64,000 nt of DNA, from the NCBI GenBank assembly GCA_964016885.1, contig OZ024748.1, forward strand, positions 44,640,001 to 44,704,000, read 5' to 3'. How positions within the stretch are numbered: position 1 is the stretch's first letter; every line of letters starts with the position of its first letter. The notes beneath the pieces were generated by a model that was given only the letters and a program-made list of their open reading frames with translations, made no database searches and was not told where the DNA came from. Source of the stretch: Eledone cirrhosa (lineage: Eukaryota). Positions 10,674-50,054 of this stretch are shown one piece after another. A program made the translations under genes and the position numbers.

Positions 10674-10706
10674 TATATATATATATCAAGATTATACCAG
10701 TTTTAA

Positions 10707-11647
10707 CCCTTTAATGTTCAAACCGGCCAAAACCGGCCAGAATTCTCTACCTCTTTCTGTTGAAACTGGCCGTAACTGGCTGCTCAAACTGATGTTAAGG
10801 TATTGTTCTCAAAATAAATACTTTCAAAATCTCAGATTCGATATTATGTGAGATATTATGTGAGGTAAAGCCTTTACCATGAAAATATAATAGTATATAT
10901 AGAGTAATGTAAATGTTATGTGAGTTATTATGTGAGGTAAAACCTTTACCATGAAAATATGATAGTATATATAGAGTAATGTGAATGTTATGTGAGATAT
11001 TATGTGAGGTAAAACCTTTACCATGAAAATATGATAGTATATATAGAGTAATATAAATGTTATGTGAGATATTATGTGAGGTAAAGCCTTTTCTGTGACA
11101 ATACAATAGTATATATAGAGTAATGTAAATGTTATGTGAGATATTATGTGAGGTAAAGCCTTTACCATGAAAATACAATAGTATATATAGAGTAATGTGA
11201 ATGTTATGTGATATATTATGTAAGGTAAAGCCTTTACCATGAAAATATAATAGTATATATAGAGTAATGTAAATGTTATGTGAGATATTATGTAAGGTAA
11301 AGCCTTTACTGTGAAAATATGATAGTATATATAGAGTAATGTAAATGTTATGTGATATATTATGTGAGGTAAAACCTTTACCATGAAAATATGATAGTAT
11401 ATATATATAGAGTAATGTAAATGTTATGTGAGATATTATGTGAGGTAAAGCCTTTTCTGTGACAATACAATAGTATATATAGAGTAATGTAAATGTTATG
11501 TGAGGTATTATGTGAGGTAAAGCCTTTACCATGAAAATATGATAGTATATATAGAGTAATGTAAATGTTATGTGATATATTATGTGAGGTAAAACCTTTA
11601 CCATGAAAATACAATAGTATATATAGAGTAATGTGAATGCTAAAGGG
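10707..11647 (-). mobile_element. piggyBac-like MITE (TTAA on both sides, CCCTTTA... TIRs) with about 11 internal 72-bp tandem repeats; no LINE insertion
   Basis: ttaa|ccctttaatgtt ... aatgctaaaggg|ttaa; unit atgttatgtgagatattatgtgaggtaaagcctttaccatgaaaatataatagtatatatagagtaatgtaa. Confidence 0.85.
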
Positions 11648-11756
11648 TTAAAATATTAAGACCATTATTCATATATTAGAGTAAAATATAATAGAGTATT
11701 ATATATATATATATATATAATATATAAAATCAAAAGATGGTTAAAAGAGTTCCATG

Positions 11757-36879: not shown

Positions 36880-38093
36880 AGCATAGCTAGTCCCCTAAAA
36901 GTTACAGTCTTGCCCTATTTCATACTTATGAAAACTTTAGTTATTGCAAGGCTCCCTTTAGGGTTCTTTCATTCTAGATTTTGTTTCTATGTCTGGAACT
37001 TCCGTAATTCTTCTAGTTTCAGTTATGAGTGATGGATCATCAACAAATAGGAATTCCTAAGGACAATCCTAGTCTGGAATTCCTCTGTTATGGCCAGGAG
37101 GACTATTATAAACAGGAGGGGGATGGGAACAGAACATTGTAGGACTCCTACCCACATGTTAAATTTATCATTGTTAGCTCTCACCTTGCTCACTGCACCT
37201 CCCTACATATAGTTTATACATTATACACCCCCGTCCCACCACCCCCCACCCCATCCACACCGCCCCTTTCAATGTAAAGTTATGTTGGTGCCACAACATC
37301 CAGGCCGAAACAAATGAGATCGTGTAGGTGTCACGAAAAAAAAAACACACAGTCCACGCTGTAATGTGACCGTGTAGGCAACACGGTAAAAACGTCCCAG
37401 TCCCACACTGTAAATGTGGTTGGTGTTAGGAAGGGCATCCAGCTGTAGAAAACCTGCCAGACAGTCCACGCTGTAATGTGGCCGTGTAGGCAACACGGTA
37501 AAAACCTCCCAGCCCCACACTGTAAATGTGGTTGGTGTTAGGAAGGGCATCCAACTGTAGAAAACCCGCCAGACAGTCCTATGCGAGCAAGACAACCACT
37601 CTTGCCTCAAGTGGGAAAACTCCCGTCCAAACCCATGCAAGCATGGAACACGGACGTTAAACGATGATGATGATGATGATGATGATGATTCCTCACTAGC
37701 CACACATCTCTCCTTAGCTTCATAAAAACCTACCAGATTAGAGAACAGGAGATTTTGTCAAAGACATTTTCTAGGTTGGCAAATATTAATCATATGGGGT
37801 CATACTTAGCTAAATACTTCTTCCACAGTTGCCTCCCCAGGAAGATGGCATCGGTAGTATTTCTCTCTGGCATGAAGCCAAACTGCATCTGATCAAGGTT
37901 AACTCTGTCAATTTTGCTATCAATCTTTCAATAATCTTTACAACCCAGTCCAACAATGTCATATCCCTGTAATTGCCTCTCTCTAATGCATCTCCTTTAC
38001 CCTTGTAGCAGTTGACAACAATGTTACTATACCATTGGGTAAGACACCTTCCTGCACCATGTGAGTGACTAACCAGTGTCCTGTTCCACCAGA
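36880..38093 (-). pseudogene. Old degraded RTE RT relic, interrupted by a young RTE-tail insertion at ~37225-37689; continues at 45233-45392
   Basis: Minus strand gives YKGKGDALERGNYR..LLD, and further on segments resembling VGVHQGSVLSPLLFII/AITEEF/ADD and LAKTKV with frameshifts and stops. Confidence 0.8.
37225..37689 (+). mobile_element. Young RTE 3' UTR copy with (GAT)n tail
   Basis: Near-identical to 2362-2818. Confidence 0.85.
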
Positions 38094-39589
38094 TTAAGCC
38101 TTTAGCATTTAAACCAGCCACATCCGGCCAGAATTCTCACCTCTTTCTGTTCAAACCGGCCACTCATACTGATGTTAAGGTATCGTTCTCAAAATAAATA
38201 ACAAAATCTCATAGATCCGATATTATGTGAGATAAAGCCTTTAACATGAAAATATAATAGTAAATATAGAGTAATGTAAATGTTATGTGAGATATTATGT
38301 GAGGTAAAGCCTTTAACAAGAAAATATAATAGTAAATATAGAGTAATGTAAATGTTATGTGAGATATTATGTGAGGTAAAGCCTTTAACAAGAAAATATA
38401 ATAGTAAATATAGAGTAATGTAAATGTTATGTGAGATATTATGTGAGGTAAAGCCTTTAACAAGAAAATATAATAGTAAATATAGAGTAATGTAAATGTT
38501 ATGTGAGATATTATGTGAGGTAAAGCCTTTACCATGAAAATATAATAGTAAATATAGAGTAATGTAAATGTTATGTGAGATATTATGTGAGGTAAAGCCT
38601 TTAACAAGAAAATATAATAGTAAATATAGAGTAATGTAAATGTTATGTGAGATATTATGTGAGGTAAAGCCTTTACCATGAAAATATAATAGTAAATATA
38701 GAGTAATGTAAATGTTATGTGAGATATTATGTGAGGTAAAGCCTTTACCATGAAAATATAATAGTAAATATAGAGTAATGTAAATGTTATGTGAGATATT
38801 ATGTGAGGTAAAGCCTTTAACAAGAAAATATAATAGTAAATATAGAGTAATGTAAATGTTATGTGAGATATTATGTGAGGTAAAGCCTTTACCATGAAAA
38901 TATAATAGTATATATAGAGTAATGTAAATGTTATGTGAGATATTATGTGAGGTAAAGCCTTTACCATGAAAATATAATAGTATATATAGAGTAATGTAAA
39001 TGTTATGTGAGATATTATGTGAGGTAAAGCCTTTACCATGAAAATATAATAGTATATATAGAGTAATGTAAATGTTATGTGAGATATTATGTGAGGTAAA
39101 GCCTTTACTGTGAAAATATAATAGTATATATAGAGTAATGTAAATGTTATGTGAGATATTATGTGAGGTAAAGCCTTTACTGTGAAAATATAATAGTATA
39201 TATAGAGTAATGTAAATGTTATGTGAGATATTATGTGAGGTAAAGCCTTTACCATGAAAATATAATAGTATATATAGAGTAATGTAAATGTTATGTGAGA
39301 TATTATGTGAGGTAAAGCCTTTACCATGAAAATATAATAGTATATATAGAGTGGTTTCTTTATTTGCCACTAGGGCACAAAAGGTAGGGACAGATACAAG
39401 GGGGGAAGTTTACATATAATTAACGAGTACAAAAATATAACAATGAAATAACAACAACAAACGAAGTCCTCAATAGGGAGGGGGCATTAACATGGGTCGC
39501 ACACACCCCGGAAAAAATGTGCAACCCTTCTCCTCAGGAGCACAAAGAGTAGGTGCTTCCCTCGTCTCCTCTTTTTCCTCTTCTTTCAC

Positions 39590-42500
39590 CTACAGGCTGA
39601 TATAGAGAGAAGACCCATTCACTCTGGCCATTCTCCCTACTTTCACCCACCTTTCATAAAACTTGCTGGGGTAGAGCACCTCTCTCTCCATTCTGATCCT
39701 TCTTTTAAAATGGTATTTGAAAAAGGGGACCAGTTGTTGGCCGGAGAGAAAGGTGTCTGACCTCAGCCCTTTCAGCCTCGTCCACCATACAACTTCTTTA
39801 GCCATGGCTACCACACAGAGAAAAACCGCCTCTCCTTCGTTTTTGAAAGGGGGAGGCGGTTTGATCGTGACAATGGACTCGGTGGTCAACCGGATTGGTC
39901 CCACCCTCGACAGTAGTCGTTCCACATAGCCCCACAGGTCAGCAATGCCTGGGCAGTGTACGAATGCGTGCGCAACGGTTTCGTCATCATGCACGCATCT
40001 CGGACAGATCTTATTCAAAGGATCTCTACCCAGGCTCCCATGCCTGTGGAGCTTGTCTCGAACGGGTAGAGCCCCTCGGTAGCACTGCCAAGCCAGGGAC
40101 TTTTGGAAGTTGTCCATCGGTCCAGGGCCAAACGTCCTACCGAACAGACTGGCCAGTTCATCTTCCTCCATGCCTAGAGCTTCTCCGAGAGCATCGTCGC
40201 ACCTGCTGCGTACCAACCCTCTATAGAATGTCGACGTGGAGTCTCCACTGATTGCCGGGTCCGCTTTCCAGAGGGCCGTGAGCGCCTGGGCACATTCAAT
40301 GTGCCAGTCGCCCACTTTTCTCGGTCTTTGCTTGACCCAGGATTGCAGCTCGGTGAGCGAGACGAGTCTGGGAAAGGCTCGCCTCACAAACGGGGCCCAC
40401 ACCGGTTGACCGGTGAGGAATACCTGGAGGTGCCGTAGCCTTAATGCGTGTTTACGCATCTGTAGCCACGGCATCCCCAGCCCTCCTTTCGAAGGGTGTT
40501 GACAGCAGATGGATCTCCTCACCAAAGGGGTCCGCTTGTTCCAAAGAAATTGGAACAGCGCGCACTCCATTTTGGCGAGTCTTTTCACTGGGCAAGGCAC
40601 GACGGTCAAGCGGTAGTAGATGACGGATGCTATATAAGTATTCGCCACCTCCGCTCGACCTTTCAGGGATAGTTTGCACTGGGCCCACTTCTGGGTGAGT
40701 GCAAACACCCTGGCCGTTACCTCGTTCCAGTTTTTCTCCACCTGGAGGTCTGGTCCGAACCAGACCCCAAGCAGCTTCACCGGGCCCTCCGTCCAGCGTC
40801 CGACGACGTCGTTGGAGGGCATCGGTTTGCCTCTCCATGTTCCGAGTTGCAAACCGACGGACTTGTCCCGGTTCAGCTTGGCTCCTGTAAACCTTTCATA
40901 TTCCTCCAGTAAGGTGCCGATCTCACCGATTTGCGAGGTTTTCGACACCATTACTGTCACGTCATCGGCGTAGGCCGACGCCGCTTTCTGCAATCCCGGT
41001 TCCAAAGGGATGCCCTGCAACCGCTCCAACTTCCGCAGTAGTGGCTCAAGAGCCAGCACATACAGAAGGGAGGAGAGAGGGCATCCCTGTCGGATGGATC
41101 GCATGATTTGGAACGGCTCCGAGAGGTGGCCGTTCACCTTGACCCTTGAGCAGACGTTGCTGCTGTGCATCGCAGCAATCCAACCCCTGAAAACGGGTCC
41201 GAAGCCTGCCGCCGCGAGCACCGCATCCAGGTAACGATGGTCAACCCTATCGAAAGCTTTAGATTGATCCAAGTTGATCAGGGCCCCACCAAAGCCGGGT
41301 TCATTCCCTACCCTCTCTATGATGTATCGCATAAGGTGGAGATTGTCGTGAATGGACCTGGACGGGATTGCGCATGTCTGCGCTTCTCCCACCAGGTTTC
41401 CAACGACAAGCGCCAACCTCTTCGCTAACACCTTGGCCAAAATCTTTAACTCTGTATTTAGCAGAGTTATGGGCCTGAAGTTACTTATGTCATCCCCCTT
41501 GTTCTCATCCTTCCTCACCAGCGTAACTACGCCCTTGGTCACAGAACTGGGAATTCTCCCGTTCTGCTGCCAGTTGCAGTAGACCGCTTCGAGGATATCG
41601 GAGAACAAGTCCGGCATTGCTACATATAGCTCGTATGGTAGACCATCGAGACCCGGGGATTTGCGTTTGCCGCATTGGCTCAGCGCCGCCCCTATCTCAG
41701 CAGCTGAAATCGTCCTTTCGCAGGACTTCGCCTCCGCGTCCGAGAGGCGCGGCAGACCGTCGAGGTATGGATTGAAATCCATAGTCTCACCCGGCGCGCC
41801 GCCCCTCTCGAACAGTCGTGCAAAGTGCCGCTGAAAGGCCGCACACATCTGCCCAGGTTCAAGGATCACACGCCCATCCTGGTTCTTCAAAGACCGAATC
41901 GTGGACTTGTTCCCACTTTTTGCCTCTGTCACTCGGGCCCAGCTTACAGCTTTGGCTCCCTCATTACCCAGAGCACGTATTTTACTTCTGACAACGCAGC
42001 CTTCATGCTTCACCTCAAAGAACTGGTCTAAGGCCATTCTTGATGCCAGCACGCCGGCTACATTGCCACTCCTAATCGCCTCTTCTACTCTATCTACTAA
42101 TTCCCTTTCCGTCTTGTTCCTATCCCTTGCTAATTCCTGACTAAAACCTATCGATTCTATTCTAATTGCTCTCTTAAGAGAGCTCCACCACCTGTTGTTG
42201 ACAATTGCCCCTGTCAAACTCTGCTTAACTAACGTGCTAATCCGTTTACTGTAAGCTTTGCTTCTCGGTAAGGACAAGTTCAGCTTCCAGTAACCGGGTC
42301 CCTGTCTATGGGTTCTATCAAGGTTGGCTATGCAGGTCACTAACTTGTGATCCGAATAGTCAACCATGAACATTTTTGGACAGCTAAATGTGTCCCTATC
42401 GTTCTCTCTAACTAGGACCCTATCTAGGTACGACCTAGATGTTCCACTGCGATTGGTCCACGTCCATAGTGGTACAGTCGGAAAATCTAGTCGATATCTA

Positions 42501-43027
42501 TCGGCCAGGTCAAATCGGCCGATTAACCTTTTGAGGCTTTTACACCCCCCTCTATTGGCACATGCCCCTACATAGTCCCAACGTGCATCCAGGATACCAT
42601 TCCAGTCCCCCACTAAAAGCAAGGAGCGGGACGTTCCCAGAAAAGTTTCCAGACGTTGGAAGTATTCCGGCCGCGCTGCCCAAAAAGGGGCGTACACAGC
42701 TATTAGTCTAAGGGCTCCACTTTCACTACTGCCGACGTCTAAAACCACCAGTCGACCCTCCGGGTCCAGGTGCACCTTCTGTATGGCGAGGCCCAGGTGT
42801 TTTCGCAGCAGAACGACAACTCCACCCCCACCCCCCGGTTGACAGAGAGATGCGAAGATCTCAAAGTCGTCGAAGAGGGGCGCCAGTTGGTGCTCGCTGC
42901 TGATCCTGGACTCGCAAATAGCCATTACATCCATTCTATGCGACCTGAGATCGTTTAAAAGTTTGCCTTGTTTCCAAGACAGTCCCAGGCCACGTACATT
43001 CAGACACCCAACTCTTATATCAGCCAT
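39590..43027 (-). CDS. Tx1-type ORF2: APE endonuclease, reverse transcriptase and C-terminal CCHC zinc finger (1145 aa)
   Basis: GCLNVRGL, LVGDWN, SYLDRVL, SDHKLV, GYWKLN; KSPGLDGLPYE, FRPITLLN, LDQSKAFDRVDH, IRQGCPLS, AYADDV, LLGVWF; CPRC...HAFVHC. Confidence 0.95.
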   Translation of the reverse strand: MADIRVGCLNVRGLGLSWKQGKLLNDLRSHRMDVMAICESRISSEHQLAPLFDDFEIFASLCQPGGGGGVVVLLRKHLGLAIQKVHLDPEGRLVVLDVGSSESGALRLIAVYAPFWAARPEYFQRLETFLGTSRSLLLVGDWNGILDARWDYVGACANRGGCKSLKRLIGRFDLADRYRLDFPTVPLWTWTNRSGTSRSYLDRVLVRENDRDTFSCPKMFMVDYSDHKLVTCIANLDRTHRQGPGYWKLNLSLPRSKAYSKRISTLVKQSLTGAIVNNRWWSSLKRAIRIESIGFSQELARDRNKTERELVDRVEEAIRSGNVAGVLASRMALDQFFEVKHEGCVVRSKIRALGNEGAKAVSWARVTEAKSGNKSTIRSLKNQDGRVILEPGQMCAAFQRHFARLFERGGAPGETMDFNPYLDGLPRLSDAEAKSCERTISAAEIGAALSQCGKRKSPGLDGLPYELYVAMPDLFSDILEAVYCNWQQNGRIPSSVTKGVVTLVRKDENKGDDISNFRPITLLNTELKILAKVLAKRLALVVGNLVGEAQTCAIPSRSIHDNLHLMRYIIERVGNEPGFGGALINLDQSKAFDRVDHRYLDAVLAAAGFGPVFRGWIAAMHSSNVCSRVKVNGHLSEPFQIMRSIRQGCPLSSLLYVLALEPLLRKLERLQGIPLEPGLQKAASAYADDVTVMVSKTSQIGEIGTLLEEYERFTGAKLNRDKSVGLQLGTWRGKPMPSNDVVGRWTEGPVKLLGVWFGPDLQVEKNWNEVTARVFALTQKWAQCKLSLKGRAEVANTYIASVIYYRLTVVPCPVKRLAKMECALFQFLWNKRTPLVRRSICCQHPSKGGLGMPWLQMRKHALRLRHLQVFLTGQPVWAPFVRRAFPRLVSLTELQSWVKQRPRKVGDWHIECAQALTALWKADPAISGDSTSTFYRGLVRSRCDDALGEALGMEEDELASLFGRTFGPGPMDNFQKSLAWQCYRGALPVRDKLHRHGSLGRDPLNKICPRCVHDDETVAHAFVHCPGIADLWGYVERLLSRVGPIRLTTESIVTIKPPPPFKNEGEAVFLCVVAMAKEVVWWTRLKGLRSDTFLSGQQLVPFFKYHFKRRIRMEREVLYPSKFYERWVKVGRMARVNGSSLYISL

Positions 43028-43048
43028 GTTGGTTAAAAGAGGAAGGAC

Positions 43049-44791
43049 CTACCTGTTCGGCTCCTGAGGAGCAGGTTGCACAATATCCATGGGCGTATTG
43101 GAGGGGTTGTTTGGTGGGGTGTTGTTCTGTGGTGGAGTGGGGGTGTTTGGTGAGGTGTGGGTGGGGAAACGTTTCAAGAGGACGCGGTTATAGGGTCGAG
43201 TACATGTTTTCCCCACGTCCTCAGGAAAGTTCTCTCTTAGTTTTGCATAGGTGTCCATTGGGAGTCTTATCATTTTTAAATGCGGTTTGTTGGCCGCGCT
43301 TGCAAAGAATTGTCCTTCAGTTTCCACCAAAGGGTCTTTGTGTATTGTTTTTACTAGTTCTTTGTTATTTGTGTTAATGTATGTATACTGTTTTATTTGT
43401 GTTGTGTTTGTTTGTTGTTCTTGTGTGTGCTTACGTTTTGTTGTATGTGTTATGTTTTGGGGTGGGGCGGATTTTGTTTGTTCTGTTTGTTTTGTTTTTG
43501 TTGGTGGTTGTGTGTTTGTTTCGTTTATGTTCGAGTGGTGCTTTCTTTTTTTCCTTTTTACAGGTTGGAAGGGTTCCCCCTCTTCGTCACTAGGTGCCGT
43601 TTCCGCTGGGTCCTCGTCCGTGCTGTCGGGTAGTGGTGTATTTTGGGGTTTTGTTGTATTTGTGTGTGTTTTGGGAGTTGTTTTGGGTGGGGCCGTGTCT
43701 TGTGTTATTTTTCCCTGTTGTTTTTGTTGTTGTTGTGGTGGTGGTGGTGGAGGTGGTGGTGGTGGTGGTGGTGGCGGTGGTGGTGTGTGGGGTGTAGGCA
43801 AAAGAGCCTTTTTTTTTGTCAATTGAGGACAAGCAGCCCTTAGATGACCCCTGCTTGAACAGTAGTAACATATGGGCCTCCTACCCTCGGCTGAAATATA
43901 TATAAATGTTTCTCCATCGAGGGACACCCTCTGTGGTATTCTAGCGATTCGTTCTGGTCTCATTTGGACCAGAACCTCCACGCTCAAACCGCCGAAAACG
44001 TCTGTGGTGACTTCTCCTACTGAGAGGATTCCGTCCTCGTCTTCTAAAAATCCTGTTAGTACCCAGGAAATGCATGCATTTGGCCGGATTCCGGAGACCC
44101 TTATCTTCTGCGTTCTTTTCCCTAAATATGTGGGGAAAAATGTATATATCTTGGAAACAATTGGTGCCACAGAGTATTTCCTGGCCGTCAATTGATCCTT
44201 CATTAGGACCGTTATATTCCCATAGAGTGGCCCTTTTTGTATGAACGATATATCACTCCACACATTTTTTAGGACCAGCTCAATCTCTTTTTGGGATAAT
44301 TGAGTTGGTTTCCTTGTTATGTTGGAAATTGTTCTGAAAGATATCGTTCTTAGCGTCGTGTCTCTTTTGATTTCTTGTGGGGAGGTGATTGTGAAGTCTC
44401 CTCCTTCTTTGAAAGTTACATACTGTTTCGCTTCCTTCATCTTTTCTCTCAGAGTTGTAATGTCCAGTTGCTTGCAGGTTTGTGTTTTCCGGACCGCCTG
44501 TGCAAAGGAGGTACCAGTAGTGGGTTCACTTTGTTTGGTGTTATCGTTATTTTTTCCTTGGTTGGTGTTGTGACTATTGCTGTTATTGTCGTTGATGTTT
44601 TTGTCTGCGTTTATGTGACTTTCTGGGTTTTCACCCATTTCTACAAATTTTTCTTTTAATTCCGTGTTCCATGTTTCTTTTGCAGAAGTGAGGAGGGAAG
44701 ACTTAGAGCCTTGTGCTTCTAGCTTCTCTGTATCACCTTTCTTAGGGGGCGTGGCTTTCACGTTAGGATGAGATGTGAAAATTCCGTCCAT
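43049..44791 (-). CDS. Tx1-type ORF1 (gag-like nucleic-acid-binding protein, ~580 aa from the first ATG)
   Basis: Zinc knuckle CYYCSSRGHLRAAC (CX2CX4HX4C), poly-Pro/Gln linker, basic KRKKRK; positioned upstream of ORF2. The track start at 44884 is a non-ATG codon. Confidence 0.88.
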   Translation of the reverse strand: MDGIFTSHPNVKATPPKKGDTEKLEAQGSKSSLLTSAKETWNTELKEKFVEMGENPESHINADKNINDNNSNSHNTNQGKNNDNTKQSEPTTGTSFAQAVRKTQTCKQLDITTLREKMKEAKQYVTFKEGGDFTITSPQEIKRDTTLRTISFRTISNITRKPTQLSQKEIELVLKNVWSDISFIQKGPLYGNITVLMKDQLTARKYSVAPIVSKIYTFFPTYLGKRTQKIRVSGIRPNACISWVLTGFLEDEDGILSVGEVTTDVFGGLSVEVLVQMRPERIARIPQRVSLDGETFIYISAEGRRPICYYCSSRGHLRAACPQLTKKKALLPTPHTPPPPPPPPPPPPPPPPQQQQKQQGKITQDTAPPKTTPKTHTNTTKPQNTPLPDSTDEDPAETAPSDEEGEPFQPVKRKKRKHHSNINETNTQPPTKTKQTEQTKSAPPQNITHTTKRKHTQEQQTNTTQIKQYTYINTNNKELVKTIHKDPLVETEGQFFASAANKPHLKMIRLPMDTYAKLRENFPEDVGKTCTRPYNRVLLKRFPTHTSPNTPTPPQNNTPPNNPSNTPMDIVQPAPQEPNR

Positions 44792-45232
44792 TTCTATTAG
44801 TTTGCCGTAATAAATTTTTAACTGGAAAATTCGCCCCAAAAAGGGGCGAAAATAAATAAACTCAAAGTTTGACGACCAAGGCAAGGGGTTAACGTATATT
44901 ACAGTATAAAAAATTAATCAAAACTCACTTTTTGAGTAAGTAAATCCGACTCGGTAGCCGAGCTTGTTCACACACGTCAACACACGTCTCTCGTATACGA
45001 GATGTTATGTGAGATATTATGTGAGGTAAAGCCTTTACTGTGAAAATATAATAGTAAATATAGAGTAATGTAAATGTTATGTGAGATATTATGTGAGGTA
45101 AAGCCTTTACCATGAAAATATAATAGTATATATAGAGTAATGTAAATGGTATGTGAGATATTATGTAAGGTAAAGCCTTTACCATGAAAATATAATAGTA
45201 TATATAGAGTAATGTAAATGGTAAAGTGTTAA

Positions 45233-45392
45233 CCATCTCAGCAAACAATCCCTGAAGGACTGGCTGCTTTCCTTACCTTTTCTTAATCACATTATCTACC
45301 ATACTGCTGCCAACTTTGATGGCGGGCCTCTCTATTGGGTCTACATAGAATATCCCTGTATTCTCCCATACATTCTCATTTAGCAACCTTTG
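45233..45392 (-). pseudogene. Upstream part of the old RTE relic
   Basis: Minus strand reads RLLNENVWE...GKAASPSGIV/AEM, which precedes the 38093 segment in RTE proteins. Confidence 0.7.
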
Positions 45393-45450
45393 TAATATGT
45401 CTGTGTCCATATATTATTTATACATATATATGTGCAAAACACTATGTATG

Positions 45451-46609: not shown

Positions 46610-47185
46610 AAAAAATGGGGAGAAGAATACTGCAGGTTGCACATCGATAACATGTAATAAAATAAGTCCCTCATCAGTAATTTGCCGACGATCATAGATA
46701 TTTCATTGCATTAAAAATCATATACCTCACGTCGGTGCAATAATAACTAAATTAAGTTGTGCCATGGCAAAATAGCATATATATATATATATATATCATC
46801 ATCATCATCATCATCATCAGGTTTAGCGTCCGTGTTCCACGCTTGCATGGGTTTGGACGGGGGTTTTCCCACTTGAGGCAAGAGTGGTTGTCTTGCTCGC
46901 ATAGGACTGTCTGGCGGGTTTTCTACAGTTGGATGCCCTTCCTAACACCAACCACCTTTACAGTGTGGGGCTGGGAGGTTTTTACCGTGTTGCCTACACG
47001 GCCACATTACAGCGTGGACTGTCTGGCGGGTTTTCTACAGCTGGATGCCCTTCCTAACACCAACCACATTTACAGTGTGGGGCTGGGAGGTTTTTACTGT
47101 GTTGCCTACACGGCCACATTTACAGCGTGGACTGTGTGTTTTTTGTCGTGACACCTACACGATCTCATTTGTTTCGGCCTGGATG
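46108..47185. mobile_element. Cluster of RTE-tail fragments in both orientations (46108-46276 +, 46300-46545 -, 46797-47185 -)
   Basis: Shared tail motif and (GAT)/(CAT)n ends. Confidence 0.75.
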
Positions 47186-49038: not shown

Positions 49039-49596
49039 CTTTTCTATATTATATATATATTTATATATATATATATATATATACATACACACACATATAT
49101 ATATCTAACCCATGCTAGCATGGAAGATGGACGTTAAACGAAGATGATGATGATGATGATATATACACATACATACACACACAGATTTTTGGAAAATCAT
49201 ATAGGGGTTTTGTGACAAAATCAGTTAGAGAAGTTCTGTTATTGGACAGTGATTCCCAATGAGGGTTCCGAGGAAGCCTAGGAATCCCCCCCCCCCCCCA
49301 CCAAATATTTTGGAGGTTTAACAAGACAAGGTGTCTTAATATAATTTAAAAAAAAAATAAAATTTAATATATTTTGTTAATGTGAATAAATTTTTCTATG
49401 TAAAATAAATAATTTTTCATTTCATTCATTGTCTGATTTTAAAATTCAAGTAATTGGATATTGTTTGTAGAATATAGATGTAGGTTCCATGATTCTTGGA
49501 AAATCCCATAATGGTGGTATGGTGGTTCCCTGACAAAATTGGTATGGGAACTACTGTTGATATTATATACGAGGAAGACTTGTATATAATATTTAA

Positions 49597-49770
49597 CCCT
49601 TTAGCATTCACATTACTCTATATTTTCTATCATATTTTCATGGTGAAGACTTTATCTCACATAATATTGAATCTATGAGATTTTGATATTATTTATTTTG
49701 AGAACAATACCTTAACATCAGTATGAGTGGCCAGTTACAGCCGGATATGGCCGGTTTAAATGCTAAAGGG
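49597..49770 (+). mobile_element. Minimal 174-bp piggyBac-like MITE
   Basis: TTAA|CCCTTTAGCATT ... AATGCTAAAGGG|TTAA. Confidence 0.88.
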
Positions 49771-50054
49771 TTAACAGGAGTATAGAGAGTAGATATGAAG
49801 TACCATAGTATATTCTGAGTATATCTGATGAGACAGTTTAACAACCGTTGAGTAAAAGACAGAGTATCAAGGAGTACCACAACACAGAAGGAGTATAGTA
49901 AATACACATGAAGTACTCACATGTAGCAGTTACTGTTGACTAGCATTATTTGATACTCTGAGTACCGACCATACATGAAGTATTGTCAGCAGACATTAAA
50001 TACTCCATGTGTTGGTAGTTAATGACATAAGGAGTACCTATTAGAGGGTAAGGA

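Follow-up and report, generated by a model that had tools for sequence, protein, structure and literature searches.

A young, probably Tx1-clade LINE in a piggyBac-type MITE of Eledone cirrhosa, with a probable preference for one site of its host

Tx1L, a long interspersed element (LINE) of Xenopus, is said to insert into the internal tandem repeat of the transposon Tx1D and to leave a target duplication. Mutsu is the name of a Tx1 family that targets 5S. Tx1D is a non-autonomous piggyBac transposon (PMC4494074), and the Tx1L endonuclease is sequence-specific (PMC1950540). In crocodilians, Tx1-Mar families target Mariner-N4_AMi, Tx1-9_AMi targets a Harbinger element, and two families target long terminal repeat (LTR) elements; many Tx1 families are target-specific, the criterion being that more than 20% of copies are flanked by one repeat, and U2 is the target of Keno (PMC4494074). 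An expansion of L1-Tx1 elements has been described in coleoids (PMC8967140). We analysed 64,000 nucleotides of the Eledone cirrhosa genome (contig OZ024748.1, positions 44,640,001 to 44,704,000; hereafter the window), where an intact two-ORF (open reading frame) LINE of L1/Tx1 type interrupts the 72-bp tandem array of a TTAA-flanked miniature inverted-repeat transposable element (MITE). It is probably a young, multi-copy LINE of the Tx1 clade that prefers a single site, immediately interior to the right terminal inverted repeat (TIR), in this abundant piggyBac-type MITE.

As with Tx1L in Tx1D, a two-ORF LINE with an apurinic/apyrimidinic-type endonuclease (APE) lies inside a non-autonomous piggyBac transposon; in contrast to the target duplication reported for Tx1L, the insertion here lost 7 bp, and the endonuclease loop has the length of that of L1. 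Like Tx1-Mar and Tx1-9_AMi, the LINE would prefer a fixed position in an abundant non-autonomous DNA transposon. Those families are old (85-87% identity to consensus), whereas the one described here has near-identical copies; its target also differs in being a piggyBac-type MITE with a tandemly amplified site, and its 5′ end carries no U1 or U2 head. The first-pass annotation, made from the window alone, had presented a transposon-targeting Tx1 LINE as more novel than it is, since, besides Xenopus Tx1L, the crocodilian families were known before (PMC4494074); to Tx1L/Tx1D, Tx1-Mar and Tx1-9_AMi the present LINE may add another case. Our literature search, with most subscription papers outside its reach, found no report of a transposon-targeting Tx1 element in a mollusc.

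Insertion site and possible recurrence of the junction

The LINE (39353-45001) with its two ORFs stands as first annotated, as does its position in the 72-bp array of the MITE. The left part of the array breaks at 39352 and the right part resumes 7 bp further along the unit, so that 7 bp are missing, and there is no target-site duplication. We rejected a reading with a 65-bp duplication, as its two copies have 3 differences, which points to target truncation instead. The 12-mer beyond 39353 occurs in the window in MITE arrays only (20 of 20 matches). The first-pass annotation had taken the expanding minisatellite for the target. The LINE does interrupt the array, but the same site is already present, once each, in the unexpanded MITEs (3 of the 31 window matches of a 13-mer), where it adjoins the right TIR, and the 72-bp unit is a copy of the MITE's right subterminal sequence, insertion site included. 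The target is thus better described as a MITE site that the array has multiplied. Outside the LINE, 72-bp arrays make up 3.7% of the window and the MITE family 6.8%. Going only by the size of these targets, an insertion at random would hit them locally that often, and the single insertion, on the evidence of the window, cannot demonstrate targeting.

We compared the 3′ end with sequencing runs. Fourteen of the 18 runs listed hold part of the LINE (10 studies, 11 organism codes), with no RNA run given among the holders; four (X1, X3, X5 and X6) were compared, all as contigs, over 39323-40222, that is 900 of the 5649 LINE bases. The comparison lists 32 contigs (4801 more lie beyond these) and 20 loose ends (376 more), and a contig was said to bridge the junction if it had at least 31 letters on the flank side. 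Two of the 32 listed contigs reach the 3′ junction, and both enter the repeat at the same unit position. The X3 contig (record 9) is unbranched, with a depth of 36.9 and 0 differences, and runs 12 bp into the unit. The X5 contig (record 17), from another study and under another organism label, has a depth of 12.2 and 1 difference, and runs 22 bp into it. The former stops 18 nt beyond AATAAA, at the end of a TA run; the latter has 10 further MITE-specific bases after the TA run. No loose end lies at 39353 among the 20 listed, and X6 (9 contigs) shows no piece at the junction among those listed. Set against the 20% criterion for target-specific Tx1 families, both of the junction-reaching contigs among those listed match, and both may be one locus.

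Near-identical 3′ ends are numerous in one run. The exact 3′ untranslated region (UTR) has a depth of 2487 in X1, where six of the seven diverged contigs are listed at 9.9-22.8 and the seventh at 39.7; this would correspond very roughly to 110-250 near-identical LINE copies, depth being no copy number. The X3 run comprises just 88 Mb of contigs. If X3 is DNA, its depth per copy would be 0.15-0.33 and the probability of assembling one given locus about 0.01-0.05, so that a contig from a single locus would rarely assemble. We consider a preference for this position of the MITE repeat likely.

In X5 and X6, which bear two other organism codes, identical or nearly identical LINE pieces occur at low depth, and a MITE 30-mer is scarce in X5 and absent in X6. 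It is possible that these pieces come from close species, from recent horizontal transfer or from carry-over. An extra depth of 12.6 in the second bin of X3 could reflect more junction contigs or spill-over from the MITE, and we did not use it as evidence. Searches with other data returned nothing close: the last 23 LINE bases had 0 matches in genome_contigs, the 73 matches of a pattern search in viral_contigs were all unrelated to the LINE, and none of the 80 loci kept (of 91) from metagenome_contigs was close to it.

Several points weigh against a site preference. Neither junction contig satisfies the bridging rule (12 and 22 bp against 31), the flank side being short because the repeat is so abundant that contigs hardly extend into it. 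The recurrence that the first-pass annotation had proposed as a check is partial: the unit position recurs, on flanks below the rule and possibly from one locus. X3 could be RNA, and one expressed locus would then be enough for its contig; the X5 copy could be that of the present locus in a close relative or could stem from carry-over. In both X5 and X6, the sister subfamily T39385A ends at 39355, and no entry into the MITE was seen for it (its depth sum, 229.2 × 28/30 + 12.2 = 226.1, equals the observed bin depth). Finally, the hairpin loop of the endonuclease aligns without gaps to that of the promiscuous human L1, with 9 residues between anchors, and the extended loop of Tx1L is not found here; P0005 and P0008 have 11 residues. 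The Tx1L loop is given as eleven residues (PMC1950540), possibly under another counting convention than that behind our 9.

Together with the chance expectation given above, such points would fit a non-specific LINE that landed by accident in a very abundant repeat, with the X3 and X5 contigs both derived from this locus through expression, descent or carry-over. The extreme abundance of the 72-bp unit in X1 and X3 (first bin, from 39323), the L1-length loop and the behaviour of T39385A would all agree with this. We nevertheless regard it as unlikely: the A-tail is missing despite a canonical AATAAA, which is unexpected under ordinary poly(A) priming, the X3 contig is unbranched at its depth in so small a run, and no foreign loose end is listed at 39353. 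Less likely again is that the 12 bases past 39353 belong to the LINE itself, as a tail that it once acquired from the MITE, and that priming occurs at TA-rich sites generally, the MITE being one of several targets. The X3 contig does stop exactly at the end of the TA run, and (TA)n tracts are widespread across the window; the 10 additional MITE-specific bases of the X5 contig and the confinement of the 12-mer to MITE arrays in the window, however, speak against this explanation.

If the LINE prefers the MITE site, insertion could proceed as follows. The APE domain would nick the plus strand after 39352. Cleavage of a transcript is expected 10-30 nt downstream of AAUAAA; as this signal lies 6 nt from the LINE end, cleavage would fall inside the downstream repeat, and the RNA would carry about 12 or more target bases. 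The end of the X3 contig may be this cleavage site, or else a branch in the assembly graph. The target bases would anneal to the nicked strand, prime reverse transcription and fix the position, which would explain the missing A-tail, and second-strand cleavage would take away the 7 bp. Cotranscription with the target can strengthen targeted integration (PMC4494074); a paper on SART1, in the parts available, adds no support for priming by target bases.

The host MITE and its surroundings

Three layers are nested at the locus: the reverse transcriptase (RT) frame of an old LINE, the TTAA-flanked MITE and the 5649-bp minus-strand LINE. The older frame resumes on the far side of the MITE, which therefore occupies a single TTAA within it. 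The host MITE (38094-45232) has the features of a piggyBac-type MITE, with TTAA copies at 38094 and 45229 and TIRs of the CCC...GGG type. Further copies lie in the window (Table 1). The empty MITE with the same array was confirmed. One of the two MITEs first annotated as unexpanded, at 49593-49774, is so; the other, placed at 23113, is a tandem dimer whose second copy carries a different array, with 22 copies of a 44-bp unit from the MITE's other end, so that internal tandem expansion arose more than once in the MITE family.

It is very unlikely that MITE and LINE moved as a unit under piggyBac transposase. Both TTAA copies and both TIRs are recognisable around the 7.1-kb composite, but piggyBac mobility needs intact ends, and whereas the MITE at 49593 is perfect, the host MITE has a left TIR without the terminal C (its one mismatch) and a right TIR with 2 mismatches; in the unexpanded MITE, moreover, the insertion site adjoins the right TIR. 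A mobile composite of the Tx1C kind would have intact TIRs, which this locus lacks, and the suggestion that the MITE serves as a vehicle finds no support here; the MITE would be a safe harbour rather than a vehicle.

Table 1. Coordinates of the LINE, its host MITE and related features in the window
Feature	Position	Strand	Remarks
L1/Tx1-type LINE, 5649 bp	39353..45001	-	interrupts the 72-bp array
5′UTR, 210 nt	44792..45001	-	begins with a 12-bp palindrome
ORF1, 580 amino acids	44791-43049	-	no internal stops
ORF1 end, UAG, spacer and ORF2 AUG	43030..43089	-	predicted partner of the 3′UTR block, 46 pairs
ORF2, 1146 amino acids	43030-39590	-	APE endonuclease, RT with YADD, C-terminal zf-RVT; no internal stops
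3′UTR block complementary to the ORF1 stop region	39510..39570	-	shares bases with the hairpin's 5′ arm
3′UTR hairpin, 11-bp stem, -18.4 kcal/mol	39494..39527	-	predicted by folding
3′ junction of the LINE	39341..39364	-	AATAAA (39364-39359) and 6 further bases without an A-tail, followed by sequence of the repeat unit
TTAA and left TIR of the host MITE	38094..38109	+	consensus terminal C replaced by G
72-bp array left of the LINE, 15.8 units	38219..39352	+	units copy the right subterminal sequence of the MITE
Right part of the array, right TIR and TTAA	45002..45232	+	array portion 45002-45220, 3.0 units
Decayed RT frame of an older LINE	37800..38093	-	resumes at 45233-45400
Empty MITE with an 11-unit 72-bp array	10703..11651	+	
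Tandem MITE dimer with one TTAA in common	23109..24471	-	second copy 23322-24471
Unexpanded MITE, both TIRs perfect	49593..49774	-	

Elsewhere in the window, a repeat resembling a short interspersed element (SINE), with an internal 112-bp duplication, has at least 3 copies (2484-2716, 37349-37579 and 46904-47135) and lies on both sides of the MITE. SINE-like repeats and a heavy microsatellite load are in keeping with a cephalopod genome. A degenerate (AT)n tract of 9 kb occupies 53211-62401, and unrelated minisatellites are plentiful, with periods of 16, 46, 48, 60, 61, 80 and 108.

Proteins and relatives of the LINE

ORF2 matches Exo_endo_phos, RVT_1 and zf-RVT above the Pfam cut-offs, with catalytic motifs present, and its nearest solved structure is human L1 ORF2p (E 9e-54). 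ORF1 consists of a conserved core of about 220 residues, a CCHC knuckle at residues 308-321 and low-complexity linkers. The Pfam match to zf-CCHC is under the cut-off, and the cluster leads from Atlas are CCHC and ZCCHC3-RBD clusters (0.90-0.92). A word-based search for ORF1 relatives found no matches, but phmmer succeeded, and P0180 and P0185 have the same layout; ORF1 belongs to a family that combines a CCHC knuckle with a probable double RNA-binding core. An ORF2 with APE, RT and a C-terminal zinc knuckle beside an ORF1 with an RNA-binding core and CCHC is what the L1 group and the Tx1 clade have in common. The 5′ end at 45001 was read from this copy alone. The 5′UTR folds better than shuffled sequences (z -2.8), and an Rfam scan of 38000-45300 gave two chance-level matches only, with no ribozyme and no U1 or U2 small nuclear RNA head at the 5′ end of the LINE.

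The nearest ORF2 proteins are one at 70% identity and a group at 38-45%. Our RT tree (56 sequences picked from 129, 428 columns) is anchored by loci labelled after a flanking RNA gene; named Tx1 references (Tx1L, Keno, Kibi) and mammalian L1 are not part of it. The LINE's group has as its sister L036, L038, L039, L045, P0053 and P0163-P0165 (100 in the Shimodaira-Hasegawa-like approximate likelihood ratio test), and the 3′ end of L045 adjoins the 3′ half of a 5S rRNA (Rfam E 1.5e-5). L004 and L008, the latter the best metagenome match, terminate in A-rich tails, beyond which U2 follows; the nodes that link them to the LINE's group are weak in the 56-sequence tree, and the link has 0.86 in another RT tree. 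Families of the Keno (U2) and 5S kinds are thus the nearest anchors, with L045 in the sister group and L004 and L008 further out, but they differ from the present LINE in having RNA genes as targets and, in L004 and L008, A-rich tails, and ORF2 identity to these relatives is only 27-30%. A further point against our interpretation is that the 5S match of L045 scores 33.9, below the Rfam gathering score of 38. With a 5S-flanked sister, the tree fits the Tx1-clade identity proposed in the first-pass annotation, through flanking RNA genes in place of the named families.

Metagenome contigs hold Tx1-like elements that adjoin U2 (L008 5815-5977, L004 4675-4885), U1 (L022 9202-9356) and 5S (L045 5014-5108), and these four are probably uncatalogued target-specific families. 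At the gathering score, Rfam gave 3 matches in 40 of the 80 metagenome loci, and a tRNA search in 39 of the 80 found none. In three species, fish relatives (P0036, P0177, P0124, P0128, P0148, P0129 and P0131) carry adjacent locus tags on a single chromosome, a hint that insertion there is clustered and site-specific.

A candidate RNA fold and the significance of the LINE

ORF1 and ORF2 lie in one frame, parted by a single UAG (43051-43049) in the context UAG-G, and the ORF2 AUG follows seven codons past it, after an 18-nt spacer. A block of the 237-nt 3′UTR is predicted to form a duplex of 46 pairs with the last ORF1 codons and the UAG, 3.5 kb away. At -85.4 kcal/mol this is the best of 535 windows (mean -34.7, standard deviation 8.7); the same pair of windows is the best of 9453, and 500 shuffles all fall short of it (their minimum is -65, compared with -86.7). 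The bases of the block also form the 5′ arm of the 3′UTR hairpin, and hairpin and duplex are therefore mutually exclusive. Among related sequences in X1, X3 and X5, depth peaks locally over the hairpin, where the most frequent variant (39517) makes C-G of a U-G pair; the 3′UTR taken whole folds no better than shuffled sequences (z 0.46).

This arrangement resembles type III readthrough in tombusviruses, where UAG-G and an in-frame polymerase downstream likewise come with base pairing to a 3′-proximal element 3.5 kb away. The viral partner is a stem-loop downstream of the stop (PMC3542737), whereas in the LINE both the stop and the final ORF1 codons lie within the duplex. It is conceivable, although we regard the model as doubtful, that an active, MITE-specific, tail-less Tx1 LINE uses its RNA as a long-range switch. 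In one state, the 3′UTR block would pair across the UAG, promote readthrough or reinitiation, and keep the 3′ end near the nascent ORF2 protein; in the other, it would fold as the local hairpin and be recognised by RT, and priming would then use the target bases gained by transcript read-through. Since ORF2 has its own AUG, at a position conserved in relatives, reinitiation is at least as likely as readthrough; reinitiation at ORF2 has been described for SART1 or L1 (PMC5972666).

Against a switch stand the following observations. Among 51 LINE-bearing sequences of at least 4 kb, the inverted match comes only 4th in BLAST score. Of 39 loci with a frame of at least 1000 amino acids, 17 distant relatives were scored and 22 skipped, including all four sister-group loci; the pairing was absent in the 17 (z +1.5 to -3.0, compared with -8.5 for the LINE), and none of them has a single in-frame stop. 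Part of the duplex is a self-complementary motif, and an old inverted duplication would give the same appearance. A variant at 39551 would break the pair with the A of the stop codon unless compensated. The depth peak over the hairpin favours this fold over the long-range duplex. Our literature search, limited in reach as above, found no report of long-range pairing at a LINE ORF1 stop.

Two X3 contigs, with a summed depth of about 3060 (80 times the LINE's 36.9), match 39503-39562 only; the 3′UTR hairpin may also occur in a SINE or in a relative of much greater abundance.

If the targeting is true, this LINE would be one more independent case of a Tx1 element parasitising a DNA transposon, in a lineage about 30% identical in ORF2 to its U2- and 5S-flanked relatives. 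As the LINE is young and intact, it would provide a site-specific integrase of APE type that is open to testing, with a loop of L1 length and a target that is short and AT-rich. If the long-range pairing is functional, it would bear on how ORF2 of LINEs is translated and how its product locates the 3′ end of its own RNA, and a true RNA switch would be the LINE counterpart of the link between translation and replication in tombusviruses.

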